Of a DNA stretch of 34,581 bases, positions 9,819 to 27,449 are shown piece by piece (the stretch's first letter is position 1; every line of letters begins with the position of its first letter). The translations under genes and the position numbers were made by a program. The DNA is from Candidatus Methylomirabilis sp. (GTDB lineage Bacteria > Methylomirabilota > Methylomirabilia > Methylomirabilales > Methylomirabilaceae), in the NCBI GenBank assembly GCA_041498975.1, contig JBGQJI010000008.1:1-34581 (forward strand), written 5' to 3'. Under the pieces are notes generated by a model, which was not told the origin of the DNA, searched no databases, and saw nothing but the letters and a program-made list of their open reading frames with translations.

Positions 9819-10409
9819 TCACTTCGCATGATCGTGGTAGAGACGCGCGACGTTCTTCCAGCGGATGTTTTCCATGAACGCTTCTACGTACGCCGCGGCG
9901 CTCGCCCCATAGTCCATGTGATAAGAGTGCTCGTACATATCCAGGACAAGGATGGGCACGCCGCCGGCGAGGTTACAACTATGGTCGGCGGCCCATTGAT
10001 TGACCAGCCGTGCGTCCCGACGGGAGTAGGTAAGCAGGACCCAGCCCGACCCACCTCCGAGCGCTTTGCCCATGGCCACGAACTCGCCCCGCCACCGCTC
10101 GACACTCCCGAAGTCCCTGATGAGGACTTCCCTCAGCGCTTTGTCCGGCTCCCCTTCCGCGCCCAAGCTGTCGAAGTACAGCTCATGCAAGACCATCGAA
10201 CTCGCGGCGATCAACTCCTCCCGCTTCAGGCCATTGATGGCGAACACGGGCACTGAGGCAAAGTCGAGCGATGCGAGTTGGGCCGTGATCGCATTGAGGC
10301 GTTTGACCGCGCCGCCATAATTGTTCTCGTAATGACTGACAATCAGCTTCTCTGATAGCCCCTTTAGCCGCTTCGGATCGCATGACAGCGGATTCATTGT
10401 ATAGGTCAT
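9819..10409 (-). CDS. chrC: Fe/Mn superoxide dismutase, ChrC type
   Basis: SHYENNYGGAVKRLN, KREELIA.SMVLHELYF, GGSGW and LDMYEHSYH.DYG; located in the chr cluster. Confidence 0.88.
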   Translation of the reverse strand: MTYTMNPLSCDPKRLKGLSEKLIVSHYENNYGGAVKRLNAITAQLASLDFASVPVFAINGLKREELIAASSMVLHELYFDSLGAEGEPDKALREVLIRDFGSVERWRGEFVAMGKALGGGSGWVLLTYSRRDARLVNQWAADHSCNLAGGVPILVLDMYEHSYHMDYGASAAAYVEAFMENIRWKNVARLYHDHAK

Positions 10410-11791: not shown

Positions 11792-12973
11792 TTACTTGAC
11801 AAAGACCCACGTCGGCTTCAAGAGCGGGAATGCGATCAACCCGATAACCGCCGTCACCGCTACCAGGACAGGGTTACTGATCTTCCAGCGGGCGAGCGCC
11901 ACGAGGCTCAGTAGGCCGACAAGGGCCGTGAGCCAGTCGCCGATGGCGATCTTCCCAAGCAGGACGGAGGCCCCCAGGATCGTGCCGATAGCGGCCGCAT
12001 ACGCTCCCTTGACGAAGCCCTGAACATTGCGGTTTGCCCGATGGCGGATGAGGATGGGAGCCACGATGAGGACCAAGAGGAAGGATGGCAGGAAGATCCC
12101 CACCGTTGAAACAAGGGAACCCCAGAACCCCGCGACGAGGTACCCCACGAACGTGGCGGTGATCACCACCGGCCCTGGACTGAGCATCCCCATGGCCACC
12201 GCGACCAGGAACTGTCGCTCGTTTAGCCAGCCGGTCTGCTGGACCAGACCCTTTTCCAGAAACGGAACAATGACCAGGCCGCTCCCGAACGTCAGGGATC
12301 CTGCTTTCAGAAAAAAAACGAGCAGCTTTCCCAGCATCCAGGCCGACAAGCCCTTGGAGACCCCGGCGCTCATCGGCAATACAGCCAGGAGGGGCAACGA
12401 CGGGAAGCCTCCTGCCCGCAACAGCGTCCCGTAGTAGAGGATCCCGACTATGCCGGATACGACGAATAGCAGGGCCACTTCAGCCTGGAGGGCCACCGTC
12501 ACGGCCAGGCACGCGCCCGCGATAGCCCACTGCATGACGTCCTCCATTCCCAGCTTGGCCAGCCGGTAGCACGAGTAGAGGATCAGGGCGATCACGGCGG
12601 GGCTCACGCCATAGAAGATCGCGCGCACGGGAGGCAGGTCACCGAAATGGACGTACAACGCGCCCAGGCTGGCTACGATGACGAAATTGGGGAAGATGAA
12701 TGCCCAACCGCCGGCCCATGCCCCCCAAAATCCCCCTCGGAGATAGGAGATGAAGATCCCCACCTGGATGGCCAGGGGCCCCGGAAGGGACTGGCACACG
12801 GCGATCCCTTCACGAAGTTCGCCCCTTGTTACCCACTTCCGCTCCTCGACCAGTTCTTTTTCCATCTGCCCGCAGAGGGCGACGGGTCCTCCAAACCCGA
12901 GCGCACCAAGGCGTAAGTAATACCGAACGAGATCCCAAACCCGCACCTCGGGAGCTATGCCGTCGCGTCCCAT
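11792..12973 (-). CDS. chrA: Long-chain chromate efflux transporter (CHR family)
   Basis: LGALGFGGP, CQSLPGP, GSLTFGSG and GMLSPGPV in two homologous halves. Confidence 0.95.
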   Translation of the reverse strand: MGRDGIAPEVRVWDLVRYYLRLGALGFGGPVALCGQMEKELVEERKWVTRGELREGIAVCQSLPGPLAIQVGIFISYLRGGFWGAWAGGWAFIFPNFVIVASLGALYVHFGDLPPVRAIFYGVSPAVIALILYSCYRLAKLGMEDVMQWAIAGACLAVTVALQAEVALLFVVSGIVGILYYGTLLRAGGFPSLPLLAVLPMSAGVSKGLSAWMLGKLLVFFLKAGSLTFGSGLVIVPFLEKGLVQQTGWLNERQFLVAVAMGMLSPGPVVITATFVGYLVAGFWGSLVSTVGIFLPSFLLVLIVAPILIRHRANRNVQGFVKGAYAAAIGTILGASVLLGKIAIGDWLTALVGLLSLVALARWKISNPVLVAVTAVIGLIAFPLLKPTWVFVK

Positions 12974-13040
12974 CCATCACCTCCCATGTCCCTTTGATTC
13001 AGGCGACAGGTCTCTTCATCCGCTGCTCCATGCATCCGTT

Positions 13041-14054
13041 TCAGCGTCTGGCCCGCGGCCGGCGCTGCAATGTCGTGCTGCTCCCAAAGCTCGCATACAG
13101 GGCATCGAATATGAGAAGTCCCTGCTCCAACAGAGCATGATCATCCGCGATGGCCGCCGCCAACCCCCTGATGACCGCATCCACGCCTTTGGCCTCCTCG
13201 CTGTTGAACTTGGCATCCTTCAGATCGGCGTCGTGGACGATCCCGGCCACGGTCCTCAAGGTTCTATCCTTCAAGCCAAAGCGCTTGAGCAAGGTCTCGA
13301 AGGTGCAATCCTCGCCCTGGTGGCCCAACTCGGCGCCCAAATAGTCAAATGGGATTCCTCCTTTGATCTTTTCAGGCTCCCGGGCGAAAGCGAAGTGAGC
13401 CTTCGGGTCGATGAAGCGGCGGATCGCCCATGCCGTCGCGATTCGATCCACGTGAGGCCGAGGTCTGGTGACCCAAGTCTTGCCACGGAAAGCCTCTGGC
13501 TGCAGCAACTTCCACTCCTCCACGGCTGACGGTCCTTTTGTTCCCAAGAGCTGGCGAAACGTCGTCCAGCATTGCTTGATCGCTTCTTCAGCCTCCCGCC
13601 GCCCGGCCGCATGAAAGTAATCGATCTCTCTTAGCTCCGCCAACTGTTTCTCGAGGGCTTTCAGCTCATCGGCTAACACCACTGCCTGATGGGGCACTCT
13701 TTTTTGAAGACCGCTCTTTCGGCGCTCCTGCCAAGCCCGAGCCTGCTTTGCCAACTCCATGTAGTCCTCATCCCGGGAACGGCGGAAAAGGTCCGCCGCC
13801 TCGTCATCGGAGAGATTTTCAATCTGCTCCACCTTGAGCAGGGTCGCGTCCCCCCCGGCCCGCTGGATCTCCTGGCACAGCCATTGGGTGATCTCGTATC
13901 GCTCTTCGCCGAACGGGAGAAGGTAAACCGAGTTCCTGAAAGAGACCGCCCCAAGCTTCTTCAGCCTTCGCCACATCCTCACTCGGCTGCTTCCGGCTTG
14001 CGGTGGCAGCGAGTAAATCAATACCAACCATTTGTAATGGGCTACTTGTTTCAT
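13041..14054 (-). CDS. chrB: Chromate resistance regulator ChrB
   Basis: WLVLIYSLP..RVR.WRRLKKLGA, WVTRPRPHVDR.ATAW.IRRFID, H.GE.CTFE and IVHDADLKD; start 14054 chosen because the promoter lies within the longer ORF. Confidence 0.93.
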   Translation of the reverse strand: MKQVAHYKWLVLIYSLPPQAGSSRVRMWRRLKKLGAVSFRNSVYLLPFGEERYEITQWLCQEIQRAGGDATLLKVEQIENLSDDEAADLFRRSRDEDYMELAKQARAWQERRKSGLQKRVPHQAVVLADELKALEKQLAELREIDYFHAAGRREAEEAIKQCWTTFRQLLGTKGPSAVEEWKLLQPEAFRGKTWVTRPRPHVDRIATAWAIRRFIDPKAHFAFAREPEKIKGGIPFDYLGAELGHQGEDCTFETLLKRFGLKDRTLRTVAGIVHDADLKDAKFNSEEAKGVDAVIRGLAAAIADDHALLEQGLLIFDALYASFGSSTTLQRRPRARR

Positions 14055-14075
14055 CGGCTCCAACGCCTTGTTGCG

Positions 14076-14124
14076 TGTAATGTCTGTTACAACAAACTCT
14101 ATTATTTGTTGCATTCCAAGTCAA
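14076..14124 (-). promoter_or_regulatory. chr operon sigma70 promoter with overlapping inverted repeats (probable ChrB operator)
   Basis: Minus strand TTGACT(14124-14119)-N17-TAGAGT(14101-14096); IRs TGTAA-N6-TTACA (14076-14091) and CAACAAA-N8-TTTGTTG (14090-14111). Confidence 0.65.
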
Positions 14125-14590: not shown

Positions 14591-14625
14591 CCATGCCTGC
14601 CCCTCGTGCCGAGGGGCAGGCATGG
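14591..14625. repeat. Perfect 16-bp inverted repeat
   Basis: CCATGCCTGCCCCTCG-TGC-CGAGGGGCAGGCATGG. Confidence 0.85.
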
Positions 14626-14732
14626 CAGTGCTGGTCGCTGCACCAAGACTCTTCTCGGTCTCGCCGATCCGAGTCGTGCAACGGTCTGCGCAGGCGACTC
14701 CTAGAGACTCGGGCCGAGGAGGAGTGACACTC

Positions 14733-15764
14733 ATGTCGATGAACTCCAACGCGGACCACCATCAGCCGTCCGGCGCGCCTGGACACAAGCACGATCATCC
14801 GCACGACCACCGCCACGGGATCATCGATCCGGCCATTGCGAGCACGGCTCGTGGAATGTGGGCCCTGAAGTGGTCGTTCTTCGGCCTGCTCGCGACCGCG
14901 CTGCTCCAGGTGGGCGTCGTGGCGATCTCGGGGAGCGTCGCGCTGTTGGCCGACACCATTCATAACTTTGCCGACGCGGCCACCGCCATCCCCCTCGGGA
15001 TCGCCTTTGCCTTCGCTCGGCTGAAGCCGAGCCGCCGCTTCCCCTACGGGTATGGGCGCGTGGAGGATCTGGCCGGCGTGCTCATCGTGCTGACCATCTT
15101 GGCCACAGCGTTGGTCGCCGGCTATGAGTCAGTGGTGCGCCTCCTTCGCCCCGAGCCGATGGGGCACCTCTGGGCGGTTGCCGGCGCGTCCGTGCTGGGC
15201 TTTTTGGGCAACGAGGCGGTGGCGCTCTTTCGGATTCGGGTCGGCCGCGACATTGGTAGCGCCGCCCTGGTGGTAGATGGTTACCACGCGCGAGCCGACG
15301 GCCTGACCAGCCTGGCCGTGCTGGGCGGCGTGGCCGGCGCCTGGCTCGGGTATCCACAAGCGGACCCGGTGATCGGGCTACTCATTACGATGGCGATCCT
15401 TCACCTCGTCTGGCAATCCGCCGGCGCTGTCTTCACCCGGATGCTCGATGGCGTGGACCCCCAGGTGCTGGATGCGGTCGAGCATGCCGCGAAGCACGTC
15501 CCGGGAGTGCATGATGTGGCCGAGATCCGCGCTCGCTGGATCGGCCATCGCCTCGCTCTCGAACTGAACGTGGCAGTCAACCCGGACCTCAGCGTGACTG
15601 GGGGTCACGAAGTGGCGAAAGAAGTCCGACACCAGATCTTGCACCACGTCCCCCACGTGTCGGCCGTCACAATACACGTAGACCCGACCACGCAACTCGG
15701 GGAAGCGTACCATCGGGTAGACGTCCACGCCCATGATGGGCTGCCCGTCCATTCGCACAACTAG
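14733..15764 (+). CDS. Cation diffusion facilitator (CDF) metal transporter with His-rich termini
   Basis: SGSVALLADTIHNFAD, PSRRFPYGYGRVEDLAG, GYHARADG and VTIHVDP; ATG 14733 after GGAGGAG. Confidence 0.93.
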   Translation: MSMNSNADHHQPSGAPGHKHDHPHDHRHGIIDPAIASTARGMWALKWSFFGLLATALLQVGVVAISGSVALLADTIHNFADAATAIPLGIAFAFARLKPSRRFPYGYGRVEDLAGVLIVLTILATALVAGYESVVRLLRPEPMGHLWAVAGASVLGFLGNEAVALFRIRVGRDIGSAALVVDGYHARADGLTSLAVLGGVAGAWLGYPQADPVIGLLITMAILHLVWQSAGAVFTRMLDGVDPQVLDAVEHAAKHVPGVHDVAEIRARWIGHRLALELNVAVNPDLSVTGGHEVAKEVRHQILHHVPHVSAVTIHVDPTTQLGEAYHRVDVHAHDGLPVHSHN

Positions 15765-17619: not shown

Positions 17620-17791
17620 CCAATCCTGAGGGTATTCCTCGGGAGCACGGACAGCGGCCTATCACCGTCAGAGGCCGTGAGTTTCTGACGTATCTTACTC
17701 GTATGGGCCGAAGCCTCAACAAAGCAGGCTAGGCATCGACTTTGTGCTGGGCGCTTTGAAATGGTCGCCACTCGGTAGGAGGATTAGAAGG

Positions 17792-19474
17792 ATGCCGGTG
17801 TTACAATTCAAAGGGAAGACCGCCATCGAGTGCTATCACCACACCATTCCGCACCACACACTCGATTTTGATGAGAAGCTGTCGGTGATTGGGAAAGGAG
17901 AGAAGCCGCGCCTGGACCGCAACCTGATCATCGAAGGGGACAACCTCTTGGCCCTGAAAGCCCTTCTCCCTACCCATGCCGGCCAGATCAAGTGCATGTA
18001 TATCGATCCCCCCTACAACACCGGAAACGAAGGGTGGATCTACAACGACAATCTTACCCAGCCACAATTCAAAGAGTGGATCGGCGAGACCGTCGGAAAG
18101 GAAGGCGAGGACGCCACCCGCCATGACAAGTGGTGTTGCATGATGTACCCTCGCCTACAACTCCTGAAGGAGTTCCTTCGCGACGATGGAGCCATCTTCA
18201 TTAGCATCGACGACAACGAGGTCCAACACCTCCGCATGATGATGGATGAGATTTTTGGAGAGAATAATTTCATCGCCACTATTATTTGGCAGAAGATATA
18301 CTCGCCGAAGAGCTCCGCCAAATTCTTCTCAGAGAACCACGACTACCTGGTTGCGTATGCCAGAAGCCGTCAAGAATGGGATCGGAAACTCCTTCCGCGC
18401 ACAGAGGAGCAAAATGAACGGTATGACAATCCAGATAACGACCATCGTGGTCCCTGGAAGCCAAGCGGCTTGGATGCTAGGAATCCTTACAGCAAGGGGC
18501 GTTATACGATCAAATGTCCGGGCGGGCGAGTGATCCCCGGCCCGCCCGCTGGTGCCTATTGGCGTTATTCAGAGGAAAGGCTGAAGGCTTTGGACCGAGA
18601 TGGCCGGATTTCGTGGGGTAAGGATGGCAACAATGTGCCGGCGATCAAGCGTTTCCTGTCGGAGGTTAAGCAGGGAATCGTGCCCCAGACGATCTGGGGA
18701 TACGATGAGGTTGGGCATACACAGGACGCCAAGAAGGAGTACGTGGAAATCCTGAATGCAGAGGAAATCTTTACAACACCAAAGCCCGTAGCTTTAATCA
18801 AGCGGGTTGTCCAACTATCAACGGAGGCGGAGGATGTCATCCTCGACTCCTTCGCTGGGTCTGGCACAGCCGCCCATGCAGTGCTTGCCCTTAACAAAGA
18901 AGATGGCGGGAATCGGAGGTTCATCCTCGTTCAGATGCCTTATGACACCAAGGACAATGAGAAGGAGAAGTTCAATATCTGCCAGAGGATCACGGCGGAG
19001 CGAGTCAGACGGGTGATTCAGGGATACACCTTTACGAAGCGCGGCGGCAATGTCGGAGAGAAGAAGGAGAAGGTTGAAGGCCTAGCCGGGTCATTTACCT
19101 ATGCCCGAGTCGGCCCGCCGTTGTTCGGCGAGTATCGTAACCTGGGTGCGAAATTGCCCGCATACGACGAATTGGCCAAGTACATCTTCTATACTGAGAC
19201 GAGCCGAGATTTCGACCGTAAGGGGATGAATGAGAAGACCGGCAAGATCGGCGAGCATGCGGGAACCAGCTACTACCTACTCTATACGCCAAACAAGAAG
19301 AAGGATCGGGCGTTAGATCTAGAGTGGCTCAAATCGCTAGGAAAGACGGAGAAGAGCCGGAGCCTGGTGATATACTGCGAGAAGATCTGGGTCCACCGCG
19401 ACGATCTGGCGAAGTATGAGATGGACACAAATCGGACGGTCCGACCGATGCTTGTGCCGTTCAATTTGAAGTAA
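17792..19474 (+). CDS. mod: Type III restriction-modification methyltransferase (Mod)
   Basis: IEGDNL.ALK, YIDPPYNTG, IFISIDDNE, FTTPKP..LI and LDSFAGSGT (beta-class amino-MTase); ATG 17792 after AGGAGG. Confidence 0.93.
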   Translation: MPVLQFKGKTAIECYHHTIPHHTLDFDEKLSVIGKGEKPRLDRNLIIEGDNLLALKALLPTHAGQIKCMYIDPPYNTGNEGWIYNDNLTQPQFKEWIGETVGKEGEDATRHDKWCCMMYPRLQLLKEFLRDDGAIFISIDDNEVQHLRMMMDEIFGENNFIATIIWQKIYSPKSSAKFFSENHDYLVAYARSRQEWDRKLLPRTEEQNERYDNPDNDHRGPWKPSGLDARNPYSKGRYTIKCPGGRVIPGPPAGAYWRYSEERLKALDRDGRISWGKDGNNVPAIKRFLSEVKQGIVPQTIWGYDEVGHTQDAKKEYVEILNAEEIFTTPKPVALIKRVVQLSTEAEDVILDSFAGSGTAAHAVLALNKEDGGNRRFILVQMPYDTKDNEKEKFNICQRITAERVRRVIQGYTFTKRGGNVGEKKEKVEGLAGSFTYARVGPPLFGEYRNLGAKLPAYDELAKYIFYTETSRDFDRKGMNEKTGKIGEHAGTSYYLLYTPNKKKDRALDLEWLKSLGKTEKSRSLVIYCEKIWVHRDDLAKYEMDTNRTVRPMLVPFNLK

Positions 19475-19489
19475 CAAGGAGACACACGT

Positions 19490-19714
19490 ATGCCGAAGAG
19501 GAGCTATACCGGAATTTTGGAAAAGGAAGGCGATCTCTACGTAGCTCTGTGCCCAGAGCTTGATGTGGCCAGTCAAGGAGCAACAGTGGAAGAGGCAACC
19601 GCCAATCTCAAGGAAGCGGTGGAATTATTCCTGGAGTGTGCGGATCCCGAAGAAATCAAACAGCGACTGCACAGCGAGGTATTTGTAACAAGATTCGAAG
19701 CGGCGCATGGCTAG
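19490..19714 (+). CDS. hicB: HicB family antitoxin (short form, no DNA-binding domain)
   Basis: YVALCPELDVASQG.TVEEA.ANLKEAVELFLE; AAGGAG RBS. Confidence 0.92.
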   Translation: MPKRSYTGILEKEGDLYVALCPELDVASQGATVEEATANLKEAVELFLECADPEEIKQRLHSEVFVTRFEAAHG

Positions 19715-19928
19715 GCTTCGGGTCCTGTCGGGGCGGGAAGTTTGCCACATTCTCGAGGAACACGGATTCATTGAAGTGAGAAGGCGAGGAAGTCATGTCG
19801 TCATGCAGCGTCGGACACAGACAGGAACCGTGACCGTCCCGGTGCCTGATCATCCTGAGTTGAAAATGGGCACCCTCCTGTCGATCATCCGGCAGAGCGG
19901 TCTTTCTCGCGCGGAATTCGAGTCCTGA
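19707..19928 (+). CDS. hicA: HicA family mRNA interferase toxin
   Basis: LSGREV..IL..HGF..VRRRGSH....VPVP.H.EL..GTL.SIIRQSG. Confidence 0.93.
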   Translation: MARLRVLSGREVCHILEEHGFIEVRRRGSHVVMQRRTQTGTVTVPVPDHPELKMGTLLSIIRQSGLSRAEFES

Positions 19929-19941
19929 ATAGCGAGGCCCG

Positions 19942-22494
19942 ATGCAACTCAAGCGGTATCAGGGACGCGTTGTCCAGGAGGTGAAAATCTTCTTGGGAAC
20001 CCTCGCCGCGCAGCAAACGGCGGGAAACAAGAGGTATGCGGCATTGGAGGCCTGGGACGAGGCCAGGAAACAACTATCTCTTCCGGGACAGTATCACCCG
20101 CGCCGAAACGGTCTTGCTAAGGACCTGCCAATCTTCTGCATCAAAGTACCCACTGGCGGCGGAAAGACCTTGCTAGCCACCCAGATTCTCGGTCTGGTTC
20201 ATCAGACGATTCTCAAGAACCGCAATGGAACAGGGCTGGTGCTCTGGGTGGTCCCCAGCGACCAGATCTACAAGGACACGCTCAAGGCGCTACGTGATCG
20301 CAGGCACTTCTACCGAGAATCGCTGGAATTCGCCCTTTCTCGCCGCATCGAGGTCTGGGAGAAGCACGAGATTGCTCGACTGACGCCCGGCCAATTGCGC
20401 AGCAACCTGAACATATTGCTGTTGAAGCTCGCGAGCACTAATCGCGAGACCAGGGAACAACTCAAGTTCTTCCGTGACAGCGGCGGCAATATCGTCCAGC
20501 ACTTCCCTCCTGAGAACGAGCCGGAGCAACACAAAACACTTAAGGCCCGGATCCCAAACCTGGATATGCTGGCCGAAAACGAGGCGCGGGGCGAATACCT
20601 CGTCAAAACCTCGCTCGGCAATTTGGTCCGGCTGTGCGAGCCCGCGGTGATCCTGGATGAGGGGCACAAGGCGACCAGTGCCCTGGCTCGACAGACCATC
20701 GAGGGGTTTAACGCTTCCATTGTGATCGAACTTTCGGCCACCCCGCCGAAAGAAGCCAACGTCTTGGTGCGGGTTTCTGGAAAGGAACTTCTCGAAGAGG
20801 AGATGATCAAGCTCCCTATCAACATCGCCAACTCCAACCAGAAATCCTGGAAAGATTGTCTCACCCAGGCAAGAGACAAGCGTGAGGAGCTGTCAAGACT
20901 GGCAGCAGACCATTTCAAGGCGAACGGGAAGAGCATTCGCCCTATCGTACTGGTCCAGGTCGAGCGGACAGGCAGAGACCAACGGGATGCCGGGTTTGTT
21001 CACAGCGAGGACGTTAAGGAACATCTAATGCAGCGGCTGAGTATCCACGAATCGGCCGTCAAAATTAAAACCTCCGAGAAGGATGACATCGAGGGAATTG
21101 ACCTCTTAGCCGAAGGCTGCCCCGTGGAGTGGATCATCACCAAGGCCGCCTTGCAGGAGGGGTGGGACTGCCCGTTTGCCTACATCCTCGTTTCCCTCAC
21201 CAATACGGGAAGTCAACAGAGTATGACCCAGCTTGTGGGGCGGGTGCTGCGCCAGCCTTACGTGGAGAGGACGCGATTTGACGAGCTGAATGAAAGCTAT
21301 GTGTTCTGTTTGCGCCGCAAGGCGGCGGACATCACACGCGAGGTGAAGAAGGCGCTGGAACAAGAAGGTTACGAAGGAGAGGCGGCCAGCGTGGTGGACC
21401 GCAGCGAGGCTGACAGCAAGCTAGACGAAAGGCGCGAGGCGTCCATACGTCCTGAGTTTCTGCGGTACTATCGGAAACCCTTCCAGGGGAAAATCTACCT
21501 TCCTCGATTCTGCGTCAAGCGGGGGAGTGAATATGACGTCCTGGATTATTTCCGACATCTAATCAGCCAAGTGGACATCGCGCGGTTTGATTACAGCCGC
21601 GTGGACTGGAATATGTCGCAGGAGCTCGCGGCGGCGAGGGATTCCCTCTACAGACTGACGCTTGAACAGAGCAACCTTGAGCGTGTAGAGGAACGCGAAG
21701 TGGCTGTGCTGGAGACGGACGATCAGGTGAAGGCGTGGCTCGTGGCCAGCCTGCCCTTTGATTACTTCAGCCACAAACAGCTTCGTGACGTGGTAGGTCG
21801 CGTAATGGAGCGTCTGGTCGAGGTCAACCCGAGTCTCCCCGGCCGTCTTGGGTTGGTCAAGTTCCTGGTTCGTGACAAGATCGTCGGGCTAGTCGAACGC
21901 GAAACGGATCGCCAGACGCAGGCGGCGTTCGAGGACCACTTTACGAACAAACGGCTCTGCTTCTATCTCGAGTGCATAGAAGGGCGGTTTGAGATTCCGC
22001 AAAAGGTGCCGATCCATGCGACTCGCAGGTTAGTCCATGACAACAACGAGCCGGTGCAGCGCTCGCTGTTTGACTATGTGCCGGACGACTTCAACGAGTA
22101 CGAGAAGTCCGTGGCGCTCTACCTCGACAATCGCCCTGAGGTCCTGTGGTGGTATCGCAATCTTGTCGGCCCTCAGCACTTCTCGATTCAGGGGTATAAG
22201 CGGAACAAAGTCTATCCGGATTTCGTCGTCCAACAAGGTCGGGGCAAGAGTCCAGTTGCCTCAGTGGTAGTTGTGGAGAGCAAGGGCAAGCATCTCAAGG
22301 GGAACGAGGATACAACCTATAAGCGATCTGTTGCAGAGTATTTCGGGAAAATCGGTCGCAAGATTTCTTGGCAAAAGCTCGGGGAGGATTTCAAAGACCA
22401 GACATTCCGCTTTCAGGTCCTGGACGAGGGTGAGTACGAGGATCGAGATTGGCGGGATGATCTGAAAAGGCTCCTCGAGGAATCTGGAAGTTGA
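19942..22494 (+). CDS. res: Type III restriction endonuclease (Res): SF2 helicase plus PD-(D/E)xK nuclease
   Basis: VPTGGGKT, LDEGH, ELSATP, ALQEGWDCP, QLVGRVLRQP and C-terminal YPDFV...VESKG. Confidence 0.92.
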   Translation: MQLKRYQGRVVQEVKIFLGTLAAQQTAGNKRYAALEAWDEARKQLSLPGQYHPRRNGLAKDLPIFCIKVPTGGGKTLLATQILGLVHQTILKNRNGTGLVLWVVPSDQIYKDTLKALRDRRHFYRESLEFALSRRIEVWEKHEIARLTPGQLRSNLNILLLKLASTNRETREQLKFFRDSGGNIVQHFPPENEPEQHKTLKARIPNLDMLAENEARGEYLVKTSLGNLVRLCEPAVILDEGHKATSALARQTIEGFNASIVIELSATPPKEANVLVRVSGKELLEEEMIKLPINIANSNQKSWKDCLTQARDKREELSRLAADHFKANGKSIRPIVLVQVERTGRDQRDAGFVHSEDVKEHLMQRLSIHESAVKIKTSEKDDIEGIDLLAEGCPVEWIITKAALQEGWDCPFAYILVSLTNTGSQQSMTQLVGRVLRQPYVERTRFDELNESYVFCLRRKAADITREVKKALEQEGYEGEAASVVDRSEADSKLDERREASIRPEFLRYYRKPFQGKIYLPRFCVKRGSEYDVLDYFRHLISQVDIARFDYSRVDWNMSQELAAARDSLYRLTLEQSNLERVEEREVAVLETDDQVKAWLVASLPFDYFSHKQLRDVVGRVMERLVEVNPSLPGRLGLVKFLVRDKIVGLVERETDRQTQAAFEDHFTNKRLCFYLECIEGRFEIPQKVPIHATRRLVHDNNEPVQRSLFDYVPDDFNEYEKSVALYLDNRPEVLWWYRNLVGPQHFSIQGYKRNKVYPDFVVQQGRGKSPVASVVVVESKGKHLKGNEDTTYKRSVAEYFGKIGRKISWQKLGEDFKDQTFRFQVLDEGEYEDRDWRDDLKRLLEESGS

Positions 22495-23017: not shown

Positions 23018-23614
23018 TTACGCGAAGGGGGAGTGGCCGCCTCCCTTGGAGGGCTGGTAGTACGGATTGCTGCCCCCGGCATGGTCGGTGGAGTCGATGA
23101 TCTGGCGGATCTCGGGGACCGCTTCCTTGATCATCACCTCGATCCCCTGTTTCAGGGTCACGTCAGCCATCCCGCATCCCTGGCAGCCGCCGCCGAGGGC
23201 GATGTAGGCGATGTCGTCCTTCACGTCGAGGAGCGTCACGTGACCGCCATGCATGGCCACGCCAGGATTGACCTGGGTGTCGAGCACCTGCTGAACGGCT
23301 GCCGCCTTGGGGTCGGTCCACCCAGCATTCGGGTTGTCGATCTTAAAACCGCTTTCGGTGATACCCTCAACAAAGTCTATAGTCGCGCCCTGCAGCTTGA
23401 GCGCGCTCTCGGGATCGACGAACACCTTGAAACCGCCAGCGTCGATCACACTGTCCTCGGCCCCTTTGTCTTCCTCTCCCTCGAACCCGAGCTGGTACTG
23501 GAGGCTGCCGGGGCCGCCCCCTGTAACCGCCACGCGCAGTCCTAGACCCTGCTGACCCTCGGCCTCCAAGAGCCCAAGGATTCTCTTTTTTGCCGAATCA
23601 GTGACGTTAAGCAT
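23018..23614 (-). CDS. nfuA: Fe-S cluster carrier NfuA (degenerate A-type domain plus NifU C-terminal domain)
   Basis: LRVAV.GGG, GATIDF...GFKIDNPN, NPGVA.HGG.V, LGGGCQGC and D.TDH..G.NPYY. Confidence 0.92.
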   Translation of the reverse strand: MLNVTDSAKKRILGLLEAEGQQGLGLRVAVTGGGPGSLQYQLGFEGEEDKGAEDSVIDAGGFKVFVDPESALKLQGATIDFVEGITESGFKIDNPNAGWTDPKAAAVQQVLDTQVNPGVAMHGGHVTLLDVKDDIAYIALGGGCQGCGMADVTLKQGIEVMIKEAVPEIRQIIDSTDHAGGSNPYYQPSKGGGHSPFA

Positions 23615-23752
23615 TTTTCCTCCTGCTGGGGCTCGTTCGCCCCGTCATTTCAATTCCAACGTTTTCACAGAGAGCAATACGCCTGGATCCGATACACAAC
23701 CAGCATGCGATCGCTTTTCTCCATTCAAGATCGAAGGCTCACTGCTACTTCC

Positions 23753-23781
23753 ATCGTAGGCTTTAAGGCAGGGGCTGTCAA
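23753..23781 (-). promoter_or_regulatory. Putative sigma70 promoter for nfuA
   Basis: Minus strand TTGACA-N17-TACGAT. Confidence 0.55.
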
Positions 23782-23814
23782 CCTGAACTCGCGCTCGGGG
23801 GCTTGTCAAGACCT

Positions 23815-25062
23815 TCAGAGGGCCTCAGGGAGTGGGGTGATGATGAACGTGAGTCGCCGGTGTGCTGCACGCAGCGCCGCCTCGACGCGCTCCGGGGTCT
23901 CGTCTCGAGCGAAGATGAACCCCAGGTACTTCATCCCCTCCGGCAGGGGGACGACCTCTTGCCCAATCGGGATGGTGATCTTGATCTCCTCGATCCCCGG
24001 GACCCGCTCGGCCTCCTCACGCCCCCGCACCTCCTGAAGGATCCCCGATTGCGGGATCGGGATCATCATGACGCCCGCGGGCTTGCGGTCGCGCTGCATG
24101 GAGACGATTTCCACTCCCAGGGCATGGCGGATGATCAGCTCTTCCAGCGACATGCCCGTGCCGAAGCGGAGCGTCCGGGAGCAAAGCCCGCCGATGGAAC
24201 GGGCGGCCACCTCGACGATCCAAGGCCCGTGCTCGTTGACCCGTAGCTCGGCGTGCACCGGCCCCTCCCGGAGCCCAAGGGCTTGTGCTGCGGCTGCCGT
24301 GCAGTCCGCGATCGCTGCCTGGGTCGTCGCGGGCAGACGGGAGGGTGTGACATAGATCGTCTCCTCGAAGAACGGCCCATCCAGAGGATCCGGCTTGTCG
24401 AAGAGAGCCAGCACCTGCAGGTCCCCCTTGACGAGGAGCCCTTCCAGCGCTACTTCCGTTCCCGGAACGAACTCCTCCACAAGAATTTGACGGGCCCCCT
24501 CGCCCATGGCGACAACCTCCGGAGTTCGCAGGATGGTCCCGATCCGGCGGAAGGCGTTCACGAACTGCGCGGGATCATCGGCGCGGATTACCCCCCGGCT
24601 GCCTGCGAGGATCGTTGGCTTGAGGACCACGGGGTATGGCACCGTGTCAGCCACAAGCGCCGGGTCGTCGTCAAGCGAGAAGAGCCAGTAGCGCGGGCTA
24701 GGGACGCCAGCCTGGGTCAGGAGCTTTCGCATGACGGACTTGTTCAGGGCGGCCTTTGCGGACTCGACAGAGTTAGATGGAAGCCCCAGCGCCTCGGCGA
24801 TCGCCGCGCCGGCCACGGTCGTCAGATCGTCCACAGGCACGACACCATCGATGGGATGAGGACGAGCAAACTCGGCAACCTCGAGGGCGGCCACGTCGGG
24901 CTTCATGAAGTCGATCGTCAGCAGGCCATCCGGAACTTTGTCTTGAAGTACATTCCGGCGATCCGATGCTACCACGACATCGACCCCAAGCCGATGCGCG
25001 GCTTCCATGAAGGCTTCGGTGCGGTAGGTGGTGGTAGGAATGAGCAAGAGGAGTCGCGACAT
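23815..25062 (-). CDS. ATP-grasp domain protein (L-amino-acid ligase-like)
   Basis: NK..MR..L..AGVP.P, YPVVLKP...GSRGVIR, LVEEFVPG.EVALEG and GPVHAELR...EVAARSIGG. Confidence 0.9.
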   Translation of the reverse strand: MSRLLLLIPTTTYRTEAFMEAAHRLGVDVVVASDRRNVLQDKVPDGLLTIDFMKPDVAALEVAEFARPHPIDGVVPVDDLTTVAGAAIAEALGLPSNSVESAKAALNKSVMRKLLTQAGVPSPRYWLFSLDDDPALVADTVPYPVVLKPTILAGSRGVIRADDPAQFVNAFRRIGTILRTPEVVAMGEGARQILVEEFVPGTEVALEGLLVKGDLQVLALFDKPDPLDGPFFEETIYVTPSRLPATTQAAIADCTAAAAQALGLREGPVHAELRVNEHGPWIVEVAARSIGGLCSRTLRFGTGMSLEELIIRHALGVEIVSMQRDRKPAGVMMIPIPQSGILQEVRGREEAERVPGIEEIKITIPIGQEVVPLPEGMKYLGFIFARDETPERVEAALRAAHRRLTFIITPLPEAL

Positions 25063-25074
25063 CTTGGCCTCTAT

Positions 25075-25182
25075 CTAGTGCCGTTCCAACCTCATCTGCT
25101 TAACGACACAATGACCAGCAGGCCTCTGAACCGCTCGTCGCATAGTTTTGCCATTTGTCCGAACAAGTTGGAACGGCACTAG
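25075..25182. mobile_element. 108-bp MITE-like element with 16-bp terminal inverted repeats
   Basis: CTAGTGCCGTTCCAAC (25075-25090) and GTTGGAACGGCACTAG (25167-25182); CTAG at both ends. Confidence 0.78.
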
Positions 25183-25859
25183 CTGCCCGACTGGCGTGCC
25201 CGATGGTATCCCTCCAGCTCGCGGTTGGCCCTGACGACAATGGCGAGCTTGCTCATCACTTCGGAGACCTTGAGGCCGGGGATGGCAACGTAGAGTTCGT
25301 CGTCGCCGAGTCCCGTATAGACTCGGTTGCCGATGCAGCCGAAGCTGATAGTGGCTCGATCTGCCTGCATCGTCTCTGGTAACATCGCGCAGGTTGGGCG
25401 CGGTCTCACTGCCACCTCAGGACCGATCCCAGCCAAGCGGGCGGCCTCGACCACGAGCATCACCTGCTTGGCTCGGCCTCGCACCAGGACCACATCCGGG
25501 TCGAAAGGCGCCCCGGGAAACGGCCCGTACATCGCCACGCCGAACGGTCCCGTCCGACGCGGGATGCTGGGAACCTCTTCCATCTTCAAATACTCGAGCT
25601 GGATCATGGCCTTCACAAGACCTTCCATCTCTTTGGCTTTCCCGACTGGCAGGTCCACGCCGTGCGTGTACGCCCCGATCGGGCAGTTGTAGTGATCTGC
25701 TGCCTCAGTGTAGAAGACCTTCCCCTCGGCAGCCAATTTCCAATAGCTGCACCCTGCCGGGCCGGCGGCTCCCACATGGGGGACACCGGGCGGTGCTACC
25801 GGGCGGAACGCGATGGCGACCGGAGCAAGGCTAAGGGCGAGGAGTTCCTGAAAGCTCAT
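25179..25859 (-). CDS. DUF169 family Cys-containing protein
   Basis: PVAIAF, GCSYW, NCPIG, DPDVVL.....QVM, RPTCA, SFGCIGNR.YT.L.DDEL; GGAGG RBS. Confidence 0.85.
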   Translation of the reverse strand: MSFQELLALSLAPVAIAFRPVAPPGVPHVGAAGPAGCSYWKLAAEGKVFYTEAADHYNCPIGAYTHGVDLPVGKAKEMEGLVKAMIQLEYLKMEEVPSIPRRTGPFGVAMYGPFPGAPFDPDVVLVRGRAKQVMLVVEAARLAGIGPEVAVRPRPTCAMLPETMQADRATISFGCIGNRVYTGLGDDELYVAIPGLKVSEVMSKLAIVVRANRELEGYHRARQSGS

Positions 25860-27388
25860 GGAATATCCTCCTGGACACTAGACTCCTGCATGTATGTGGG
25901 TTTGAGAGGGCCGAACTGGCCCTCGGTGGGTTCCGCTCAGCAAAACCAGGATTCGGTGAGTCGGGGCGGACGGTTCCCCTCACCTACCGGAGAGAGCGAG
26001 ACCGCCGGGACCTGTTGTCTCCCTGCCACGGTATAGGCGACCTCCCGAATTCTTTGAAACGTGACTCGTGGGTCCTCGGCAGCTCTGACGGCCTCCTCCA
26101 CGAGTCCGCTGACAACCTTGTGTAGCTCATCCATTCGCGTGTCCGGGTGGGTCCAGCGATACATGAATGACGCCTGATCCAACGCTCCCAGAAACGGCCG
26201 GATTGCGACTTGTTCAAGCAGCGCGGAACCGGGGGGGACCAGCAGCCGGATCGCAAACTGCACCGGGTCCACATGATCGACGAGATCCTCCGTCTGGACG
26301 AAATCGAGGATGTCCAGGTACTCTTCAATGGTCGTCCACGGGGTAAAGGGGACCCATGTGGGCCGTAGGGCAAAGCCGGCGTCCCGGACGATTCGAATCG
26401 CCTCGAACACGTCGGCCCTGGTGTGGCCCTTTTCCAGGTTGGCCAGCACCGTGTCGCTGAGCGACTCCACCGCGCTGACCATGAACACGCAGCCGAGCGC
26501 CCCGAGTTCGGGGAAGAGCGCCCGGCGCTTCAGGATATGCTCGACCTTGGCGGTGAAATCGAAGGTCAGTTCCGGAAACTCCCGGTGCATAGAGCGGACG
26601 ACGTTGAGGGAATGGCCGGGCCCATTCAGGAAGTCGGGGTCGCCAAACGTGATGTGGGTTGCGCCAGACCGGACCAGACGCCGGATGTCCTCGAGGACGA
26701 TCTCCTGGGGGACCACGAAGAATCGGCCTCCATAGACAGGCGGGATGGGACAGTGGAGGCACATATGGAGGCAGCCCCGACTTGCCTCGACGTATCCCGC
26801 CAGCGCCCGGCTGCCATTACGCTCGAGGTGGGCGTACTCCTCCAGAGCCGGCAGCCGGCCCCGGCTCGGAATCGGGAAGGGTAGCCGCTTGAGGAACGGT
26901 GCTGAGGGCTGGCCCCGCCTCCACACACCTTCGACAGCGGAAGAACGACCTGCCTCCAATGCTTGGACAAGACTGACCAGCGGCGTCTCGAACTCGCCCC
27001 CGATCACCGAATCCGCGATATGGTCGAGCAGGTAGTCGGCGTTCAGCGAGGCGTAGAGCCCGTAGAGGCAGATTTGGCAGGTCGGATTGACCTGACGGAC
27101 CTGCTCGGCCACCCGGATCCCCAGCCGCAGCGCCGTGTGCATCGGGACCGAGACCCCCACAAAGCTGGCCCGCGCCACTCTCCTTACATCGAAGCTCTCG
27201 ACGGAGATGTCGAGCGCGTCAGGCGCGTACCCTGCACGCTCGAGGAACCCGAGCGGAGACGCGACGCCAAGGGGCTGGTGGCCGAGCTCATAGCAGGAGA
27301 TGAGCAGGATCGATCCCGGCTCCCGTAGACGCATCGCGCGGTTACAATCAGTTGTGATAACGTGTGTTAGTACTGGCAAAGCGACCAT
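25856..27388 (-). CDS. CUAEP-tail radical SAM selenoprotein (B12-binding-like N-terminus; TGA 25939-25937 read as Sec)
   Basis: EASRGCLHMCLHC (CxxxCxxC) and HITFGDPDF; readthrough gives PPRLTESWFC-U-AEPTEGQFGPLKPTYMQESSVQEDIP*, with the true stop overlapping the DUF169 ATG (ATGA); start is 27388 or 27334. Confidence 0.88.
25906..25924 (-). promoter_or_regulatory. Bacterial SECIS-like stem-loop
   Basis: Starts 12 nt after the UGA: GAGGGCC-AGUUC-GGCCCUC; apical loop 19 nt from the UGA with G at loop position 2. Confidence 0.72.
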
Positions 27389-27420: not shown

Positions 27421-27449
27421 AGTATTGCAGCAGAGGGTGGACTCGTCAA
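27421..27449 (-). promoter_or_regulatory. Putative sigma70 promoter for the radical SAM operon
   Basis: Minus strand TTGACG-N17-AATACT with a TGn extension. Confidence 0.45.

Follow-up and report, generated by a model that had tools for sequence, protein, structure and literature searches.

A CUAEP-tail radical SAM selenoprotein related to ArsL and its recurring gene neighbours: a candidate four-gene module in Candidatus Methylomirabilis

Introduction

ArsL, a radical S-adenosylmethionine (SAM) enzyme, is the nearest characterised relative of the protein considered here: a predicted selenoprotein encoded in a 34,581-nucleotide stretch of Candidatus Methylomirabilis sp. DNA (assembly GCA_041498975.1, contig JBGQJI010000008.1; hereafter the window), next to genes for a DUF169 protein, an ATP-grasp ligase and an NfuA-like protein. 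In ArsL, a Cys tail that binds no cluster holds As(III), to which the enzyme transfers the aminocarboxypropyl group of SAM (bioRxiv 10.1101/2024.02.01.577332). According to two reports (bioRxiv 10.1101/2024.02.01.577332; 10.64898/2026.04.29.721666), methylthioadenosine and an aminocarboxypropyl species are the products of SAM cleavage by ArsL, the only canonical-fold radical SAM enzyme known to generate such a species; its Cys tail binds arsenite and is required for product formation but not for SAM cleavage. The second report also proposes that a nucleophile attacks the Fe-bound aminocarboxypropyl group (10.64898/2026.04.29.721666).

The window protein belongs to another family, NF040546, the "CUAEP/CCAEP-tail radical SAM (seleno)protein" family. 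A full-text literature search on "CUAEP" returned one relevant publication, which names the family and its CU motif as uncharacterised (bioRxiv 10.1101/2022.07.06.499078). The selenoprotein family is already curated and is not new. The set of four genes, on the other hand, appears undescribed, as does its parallel in ArsL loci, and we found no description in print of the neighbourhood of CUAEP genes.

BacD and DdaF, two L-amino acid ligases of the ATP-grasp superfamily, each attach a warhead amino acid to another amino acid that serves as its carrier. A preliminary description of the locus, made from its sequence, had envisaged that the radical SAM enzyme forms a carbon-metalloid amino acid, which the ATP-grasp enzyme builds into a peptide. 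As part of our best explanation, the four genes would make up one module around an ArsL-like radical SAM selenoenzyme. We tentatively favour, as possible though short of probable, the reading that this module transfers an aminocarboxypropyl group to a soft atom at the Cys-Sec tail and then ligates the product into a dipeptide, with the Nfu-type and DUF169 proteins as accessories.

Results

A radical SAM protein with a selenocysteine codon

The radical SAM protein is a full member of NF040546: it scores 715.9 bits against a cutoff of 500 (NCBIfam) and aligns with model positions 1-467 of 468, and its tail, its selenocysteine (Sec) position and its Cys orthologues all fit the family. CUAEP genes are found in at least eight phyla, with at least 585 confirmed genomic relatives and 52-73% identity across phyla. 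In Pfam, Radical_SAM is above its cutoff and B12-binding, at 31.3 bits, lies just under the cutoff of 32.1. The radical SAM motif CX3CX2C (C206/C210/C213) is present in 72/72 sequences. An AlphaFold2 model has a predicted local distance difference test (pLDDT) score of 73 overall and below 50 in the tail; Foldseek groups it with the class-B enzymes OxsB, AprD4, TsrM and MgmA, and MiaB and RimO are also among the fold matches.

Without read-through, the open reading frame (ORF) runs from 27388 to 25937 on the minus strand, 483 codons up to a TGA. Reading this TGA as Sec lengthens the frame by 26 codons to a second TGA (25858..25856), the true stop, which overlaps the DUF169 start codon (25859..25857) as ATGA. 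These coordinates agree with the preliminary description, in which the coupling of the two genes was visible only if the UGA is read through. Either M1 or M19 is possible as the start, since the NF040546 model begins at residue 27.

Comparative sequence analysis identifies the UGA as a genuine Sec codon with the classical signs of a bacterial selenoprotein gene, as had been proposed, because Cys orthologues exist, the tail downstream is conserved, and a covarying hairpin is confined to the Sec forms. Among 80 loci that we fetched with a family alignment, out of the genomic relatives counted above, a TGA followed by a conserved in-frame AEPTxxQ tail is found in 48 and a Cys codon at that position in 23; the remaining nine are unscorable there, mostly because the contig ends at that point. 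The tail C-[U/C]-A-E-P is thereby present in 71/80 loci, and the window reads WFCUAEPTEGQFGPL. All 20 scorable Nitrospirota loci are Cys forms. Database entries reflect the same division: among the best 120 relatives, 98 have as their last residue the Cys that precedes the TGA position, and 22 run on with C-[AS]-E-P as Cys forms. One Planctomycetota locus (L031:4595-6019) has the tail W-F-U-U-A-E-P, with two consecutive TGA codons where others have C-U or C-C.

The hairpin follows the UGA closely (Table 2). Across 49 Sec forms, 85.7% of 343 cells are paired, including 240/245 in the inner five pairs, and 49 cells have changed on both sides (GC/AU and CG/UA exchanges). None of 500 shuffles reaches the observed values and slid controls are 21-58% paired, whereas the 23 Cys forms are 42.2% paired at the hairpin columns, no better than their own controls. 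Bacterial selenocysteine insertion sequence (SECIS) elements of the fdhF type are the comparison class. The window hairpin resembles them in its position soon after the UGA, in the G and U of its apical loop and in its covariation; it differs in that a scan of the window against Rfam at the gathering score gave no match, either to this hairpin or to a palindromic element described below. No selA, selB, selC, selD or tRNA gene lies within the window.

A member of the family is annotated in a cultured organism, Thermomicrobium roseum DSM 5159 (megaplasmid NC_011961.1, 796591-798027; L081), where the annotation is cut at the Sec position and the gene lies between genes for a pyridoxal phosphate (PLP)-dependent aminotransferase and a major facilitator superfamily (MFS) transporter.

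Kinship with ArsL

The ArsL family, NF040542, is the second-best NCBIfam match of the radical SAM protein at 335.6 bits (cutoff 450), and the next family reaches 51.7 bits. Residues 26-423 share 38% identity (E 1e-101) with an RCCLKC-tail protein encoded on a Bacillus cereus plasmid, and a joint alignment sets the Cys-Sec pair against the CC of RCCLKC in 5/5 sequences. The relationship to ArsL, which the preliminary description had proposed, is thus borne out, and the chemistry that it ascribed to ArsL, transfer of the aminocarboxypropyl group of SAM to As(III), agrees with the published account (bioRxiv 10.1101/2024.02.01.577332).

The two proteins share the same two-domain architecture, the CX3CX2C motif and a C-terminal tail whose vicinal pair is aligned to the arsenite-binding CC. 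They differ in that the CUAEP tail is about 60 residues longer, contains Sec and reads C-U-A-E-P rather than C-C-L-K-C; in that C32, H37, H84 (each 71/72) and H212 (72/72) are confined to the CUAEP family, in which C300 (69/72) is likewise specific and C107 occurs in 58/72 sequences; and in that the window locus has no ars genes and has other partners, DUF169 and Nfu. A quick tree search with 72 CUAEP and five RCCLKC rows separates the two families by a long branch with 100% SH-aLRT support. At the level of sequence, the CUAEP family is thereby shown to be a sister of the ArsL family, and the window protein is not itself an ArsL family member, as it scores below the cutoff and has neither the RCCLKC tail nor linkage to ars genes. 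By analogy, it plausibly works like ArsL.

The same comparison admits another chemistry, which we regard as unlikely but serious: the enzyme would make a 5'-deoxyadenosyl radical and modify an amino acid or the dipeptide formed by the ATP-grasp enzyme, and the Cys-Sec tail would act as a redox or hydrogen-donating arm that binds no substrate, in the manner of the C-terminal Cys-Sec redox arm of mammalian thioredoxin reductase. Enzymes that use this radical share the CX3CX2C motif and the class-B fold, and the window protein lies under the ArsL cutoff, has no third tail Cys, is modelled with low confidence in the tail and has no metalloid context. Against this chemistry, ArsL is by far the nearest characterised relative, given the 51.7 bits of the next family, and the vicinal pair sits where ArsL binds its substrate.

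The partner proteins

The ATP-grasp protein is, by Pfam and by its best solved relative, of the L-amino-acid-ligase type, in line with the amino-acid ligase that the preliminary description had predicted. ATP-grasp_4 (119.4 bits), LAL_C2 (66.5 bits) and ATPgrasp_N (58.1 bits) are all above cutoff, and the best structural match is the L-amino acid ligase BL00235 (3VOT; E 1.6e-43), with BacD in second place. It has the same Pfam set as BL00235, BacD and DdaF and aligns with them over its full length, but lies far under every equivalog cutoff.

The DUF169 protein scores 83 bits against PF02596 (gathering 27) and has exactly four Cys residues (37, 59, 157 and 175); the preliminary description had spoken of four Cys motifs. 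All four are invariant in 19 orthologues of 47-64% identity, as are H56, H66 and H219. Its AlphaFold2 model is confident (pLDDT 94); solved relatives were found in the PDB neither by sequence nor by fold (best E 0.17), and an Atlas structure search returned DUF169 clusters only. The literature naming DUF169 gives no function in the portions available.

The NfuA-like protein combines an A-type domain (Fe-S_biosyn, PF01521, 52.6 bits) with an Nfu domain (NifU, PF01106, 81 bits) whose CxxC reads CQGC in the translation. It has these features in common with NfuA and other Nfu-type carriers and differs from NfuA in staying under the equivalog cutoffs (TIGR03341, 127.7 vs 269.35 bits; NF008392, 103.9 vs 268 bits). 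Nfu-type partners elsewhere vary in architecture, having Nfu_N with NifU, NifU alone or an A-type domain alone. The sequences suggest that the Nfu partner is a dedicated rather than a housekeeping copy.

Longer proteins that match the partners were also inspected. Thirteen match the ATP-grasp protein, five of them with a radical SAM domain as well. P0135 and P0136 contain long Arg/Pro-rich stretches, and at the junctions of P0129, P0131 and P0133 the peptides have 5-mers in common with the tail DNA of 42, 6 and 12 loci, respectively, when that DNA is read with a +2 shift; read in the true frame, it gives a single match, to P0131. We rejected these ORFs as true fusions; we count them as frameshifted merges of neighbouring genes, and they serve as evidence of adjacency only. 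Three longer proteins match DUF169: P0124 and P0125 look frameshifted, and P0123 (757 aa) is a clean in-frame radical SAM-DUF169 protein. In P0126 (1176 aa), which like P0123 could be a merged gene call, a ligase orthologue (59% identity) is combined with a PSP1-like domain and with domains of ferredoxin sulfite reductase.

Recurrence of the partners beside CUAEP genes

We compared the window proteins with stop-to-stop ORFs of the 80 loci and counted a partner if it lay within 2.5 kb and reached 300 (ATP-grasp), 90 (DUF169) or 70 bits (Nfu). Across all 80 loci, 31 have an ATP-grasp gene, 24 DUF169 and 25 an Nfu-type gene; 46 have at least one partner and 34 none, 15 combine ATP-grasp with DUF169, 19 ATP-grasp with Nfu, and five have all three. 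The informative loci are the 44 that have 3 kb or more on each side: here ATP-grasp is found in 20, DUF169 in 14 and Nfu-type genes in 18, at least one partner in 29 and none in 15, ATP-grasp with DUF169 in 10, ATP-grasp with Nfu in 13, and all three in four. Clustering of the radical SAM gene with ATP-grasp and DUF169 genes, which the preliminary description had put forward as the point to examine by genome neighbourhood, hence recurs across phyla (Table 1). Its suggestion that nfuA may be incidental did not hold: since Nfu-type carriers adjoin CUAEP genes in 18 of the 44 loci, nfuA belongs to the pattern.

Table 1. Partner genes at informative loci, by group
Group	Informative loci	ATP-grasp	DUF169	Nfu-type
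Nitrospirota	11	9	8	2
Acidobacteriota	7	6	0	7
Planctomycetota	9	2	6	2
Poribacteria	4	0	0	4
Gemmatimonadota	6	0	0	0
Chloroflexota	4	0	0	0
Rokubacteria, Methylomirabilia, Clostridia-labelled	1 each	in each		in each

The genes occur in varied orders (rSAM-DUF169-ligase, ligase-rSAM-Nfu, rSAM-Nfu-ligase and rSAM-Nfu-DUF169-ligase, where rSAM is the radical SAM gene) and in convergent arrangements. Because order and orientation vary between loci, the linkage is not that of a single inherited block. This bears on a sceptical account in which no pathway is shared: the radical SAM gene would simply accompany Fe-S maturation genes, with the ligase and DUF169 as unrelated neighbours. Such an account would accommodate the informative loci without any partner and the variation of partners by phylum, but we hold it very improbable: ATP-grasp orthologues, which score 435-623 bits in the 31 loci where they adjoin the gene, do so in Nitrospirota, Acidobacteriota, Planctomycetota and Rokubacteria/Methylomirabilota in varied order and orientation, DUF169 overlaps the radical SAM gene as ATGA, and the merged radical SAM/ATP-grasp ORFs are the same adjacency in further sequences.

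The frequency of the Nfu-type carrier, which is the commonest partner in Acidobacteriota (7/7) and Poribacteria (4/4), raises a further possibility, that of sulfur or selenium insertion: an auxiliary cluster or a persulfide or selenide on the tail would be consumed, Nfu, perhaps with DUF169, would regenerate it, and the ATP-grasp enzyme would act on a thio- or seleno-amino acid. NfuA re-supplies the sacrificed cluster of LipA, a precedent for such a role. The extra family-specific Cys residues (C32, C300 and C107), the presence of MiaB and RimO among the fold matches and the joining of ligase and sulfite reductase in the one ORF P0126 point the same way. We nevertheless consider this improbable, as there is no evidence of a second cluster, the ArsL tail binds none, and P0126 is a single sequence that may be a merged gene call.

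Two of the loci without partners (L058 and L080) have iron or Fe-S genes immediately next to the radical SAM gene; taken together, the neighbours in such loci are heterogeneous, and a theme shared by them was sought and rejected. Additional genes recur within single phyla. In 11 Nitrospirota loci (L003, L007, L014, L015, L022, L036, L039, L053, L065, L071 and L077) there is a conserved ORF, about 135 aa long and matching neither Pfam nor NCBIfam, that is convergent to the ATP-grasp gene and situated roughly 1.4-2.5 kb downstream of the radical SAM gene. In five Planctomycetota loci (L010, L011, L024, L032 and L035) the radical SAM gene is followed by co-directional genes for a 165-aa protein, a LysA-like PLP decarboxylase below the equivalog cutoffs and an FGE-sulfatase-domain protein; DUF169 is present in four of these five.

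ATP-grasp genes at ArsL loci and the metalloid question

Plasmid records that match the radical SAM protein number 38: one CUAEP protein (that of T. roseum), 36 ArsL/RCCLKC-tail proteins and one weak match. On plasmids, the T. roseum megaplasmid included, we found no orthologue of the window ligase or DUF169 (best ATP-grasp match 130 bits; no match for DUF169). Five ArsL-family loci were opened, and four of them, from Bacillus cereus, Alicyclobacillus, Priestia and Pantoea (L082, L083, L084 and L086), carry an ATP-grasp gene, a likeness to the window locus; the fifth, the arsQLM locus of Pseudomonas, has none. Neighbours of these ATP-grasp genes are arsM, arsN, arsR and genes for MFS, aquaporin and CobW-like GTPase proteins. 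ATP-grasp_4 is present in all three ligases scanned (B. cereus, Alicyclobacillus and Pantoea), and LAL_C2 is above cutoff in B. cereus, just below it in Alicyclobacillus and undetected in Pantoea. The ligase of B. cereus is an orthologue of that of Pantoea (223 bits); the window ligase is only distantly related to them (86 and 70 bits, respectively). A small CMD-family gene lies just before the ATP-grasp gene in three of the four loci, and in Pantoea an unannotated 91-aa ORF takes its place.

Two sister radical SAM families are each, independently, joined to an ATP-grasp ligase of this kind. Among the indirect arguments for a ligase that acts on the product of the radical SAM enzyme, this pairing is the strongest, and it suggests that the ligases at ArsL loci would give peptide forms of arsinothricin-type amino acids. 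In our literature search, nothing connected an ATP-grasp enzyme with arsinothricin or with the aminocarboxypropyl chemistry of radical SAM enzymes.

In a narrower version of the preliminary description's reading, the tail would bind arsenite, methylarsenite or antimonite, and an arsinothricin-like amino acid would be built into a peptide antibiotic. The ArsL precedent and the ArsL-family loci with an ATP-grasp gene of their own speak for this version, as do the CU motifs noted in organometal-handling proteins (Haft preprint) and a DUF169 gene that a figure legend places beside MerR and an hgcA-like gene in Nitrospina. The genomic context does not bear out the metalloid substrate: no ars gene occurs among the 29 window proteins (NCBIfam and Pfam) or among 96 neighbours in 30 partner-less loci, and ArsM, ArsR, ArsN, aquaporin and Acr3 are all missing there, whereas ars genes are present at 5/5 ArsL-family loci examined. 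Inheritance, moreover, mostly follows phyla on the tree. Because no ars genes accompany the CUAEP family, arsenic is unsupported as its substrate, and we judge this version quite improbable. Arsenic is less likely here than for ArsL, and sulfur or selenium species are equally open as the heteroatom.

Features of the locus and its surroundings

The four genes are co-oriented on the minus strand, as first described (Table 2). Between DUF169 and the ATP-grasp gene lies a spacer of 116 nt that contains an inverted repeat (25075-25111/25146-25182) with a perfect outer 16 nt and 73% identity over 37 nt; the DUF169 stop codon TAG is within one arm. Removal of the palindrome and one copy of the terminal CTAG leaves a spacer of 12 nt, the distance estimated in the preliminary description. 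In relatives with DUF169 followed by ATP-grasp, the spacer, whose length depends on the start codons that we chose, is 4-19 nt in seven of nine loci and 95 and 296 nt in the other two. Sequence comparison therefore marks the 108-nt element as an insertion that is absent from most orthologous loci. Its RNA folds at -55.8 kcal/mol (z -4.3), and within the 34.6-kb window each arm matches only the other, so that the element is single-copy there. It is either similar to a miniature inverted-repeat transposable element (MITE) or a structured intergenic RNA; a single copy does not show it to be a MITE.

Table 2. Features of the locus within the window
Feature	Coordinates	Strand	Description
Radical SAM selenoprotein gene	25859..27388	-	510 aa with U484; CUAEP/CCAEP-tail, NF040546 715.9 bits
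DUF169 gene	25859..25179	-	226 aa; PF02596
ATP-grasp gene, L-amino-acid-ligase type	25062..23815	-	415 aa; ATP-grasp_4, LAL_C2, ATPgrasp_N
NfuA-like gene	23614..23018	-	198 aa; A-type domain and Nfu domain with CxxC
Predicted Sec codon TGA (U484, directly after C483)	25939..25937	-	Cys orthologues, conserved tail
SECIS-like hairpin	25924..25906	-	7-bp stem, loop AGUUC, begins 13 nt past the UGA
Palindromic element, 108 nt	25075..25182		strand not assigned; inverted repeat between DUF169 and ATP-grasp
Promoter-like site upstream of radical SAM gene	27449..27421	-	consensus match only
Promoter-like site upstream of nfuA	23781..23753	-	10/12 positions; consensus match only

Two promoter-like sites were observed where 1.1 were expected, and both are for that reason graded as consensus matches only.

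An upstream 207-aa ORF, a PPOX-class gene and a malate-synthase-like gene are not conserved beside the CUAEP family in the 80 loci and were for this reason left out of the module. On the strand opposite the module, and immediately upstream of it, a region of lower GC content (17744-22494; 0.53-0.57) encodes a type III restriction-modification pair, which consists of an N6/N4 DNA methylase (17744-19474) and a helicase/endonuclease of the res-subunit type (19942-22494). At 11792-14114 the window has a chromate resistance pair, chrA (11792-12973) and a chrB-like gene (13041-14114), which adjoins genes for a cation diffusion facilitator (CDF) transporter (14622-15764) and a superoxide dismutase (9819-10409). 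MFS and tripartite ATP-independent periplasmic (TRAP) transporter genes are also encoded.

Discussion

Our analysis suggests how the proposed aminocarboxypropyl-transfer module might operate. The radical SAM enzyme would cleave SAM at its gamma-carbon, as ArsL does. The 3-amino-3-carboxypropyl group would then pass to a soft nucleophile, either one that the Cys-Sec pair holds or the pair itself; the family-specific residues C32, H37 and H84, located in the would-be cobalamin pocket of the N-terminal domain, may assist in this step. The product would be a gamma-heteroatom 2-aminobutyrate amino acid, which the ATP-grasp ligase would couple to a second amino acid to give a dipeptide. The Nfu carrier would load or repair the 4Fe-4S cluster, and DUF169, translationally coupled to the radical SAM gene, could be its metal- or cluster-binding accessory.

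Several observations weigh against this proposal. Identity to ArsL is 38%, a level at which SAM may be cleaved in another way, and the third Cys of the ArsL tail is Pro in the CUAEP tail (CUAEP vs CCLKC). The module is not fixed, because DUF169 and Nfu largely alternate between phyla; 15 of the 44 informative loci have no partner at all, among them 6/6 in Gemmatimonadota and 4/4 in Chloroflexota; and the T. roseum gene has neither a ligase nor a DUF169 orthologue beside it. The window ATP-grasp enzyme is not orthologous to those of ArsL loci (70-86 bits), and the in-frame radical SAM-DUF169 protein P0123 could be a sequencing error or a merged gene call. CUAEP genes have no consistent linkage to any ars, sel, exporter or self-resistance gene, and the family, with its high conservation and a quick tree that largely follows phyla, looks more housekeeping-like than an antibiotic cluster or a resistance island.

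Extended to the whole family, the aminocarboxypropyl-transfer reading would make CUAEP proteins a second, much wider branch of aminocarboxypropyl-transferring radical SAM enzymes, in which the Cys-Sec tail forms a C-Se, C-S or C-metalloid bond and a dedicated ligase turns the product into a dipeptide; in this general form we regard it as speculative and rather unlikely. If it is true, the product would be a new organo-chalcogen or organo-metalloid metabolite, made in Nitrospirota, Acidobacteriota, Planctomycetota, Rokubacteria and others, and DUF169, whose fold has no solved relative, would be a new metal-handling partner.

In conclusion, the closest sister family of ArsL is far more widespread than ArsL and is a predicted selenoprotein family, and the recurrence of its gene grouping in several phyla suggests an uncharacterised pathway to an unusual amino acid or dipeptide. 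The partners (ligase, Fe-S carrier and DUF169) give concrete substrates and partners to examine; the Cys-form orthologues in Nitrospira need no Sec machinery, and the T. roseum member is directly accessible. Such work could yield the first function for DUF169. In addition, the ArsL loci with a ligase of their own on Bacillus, Priestia, Alicyclobacillus and Pantoea plasmids suggest that peptides may be a further form in which arsinothricin-type amino acids are made.

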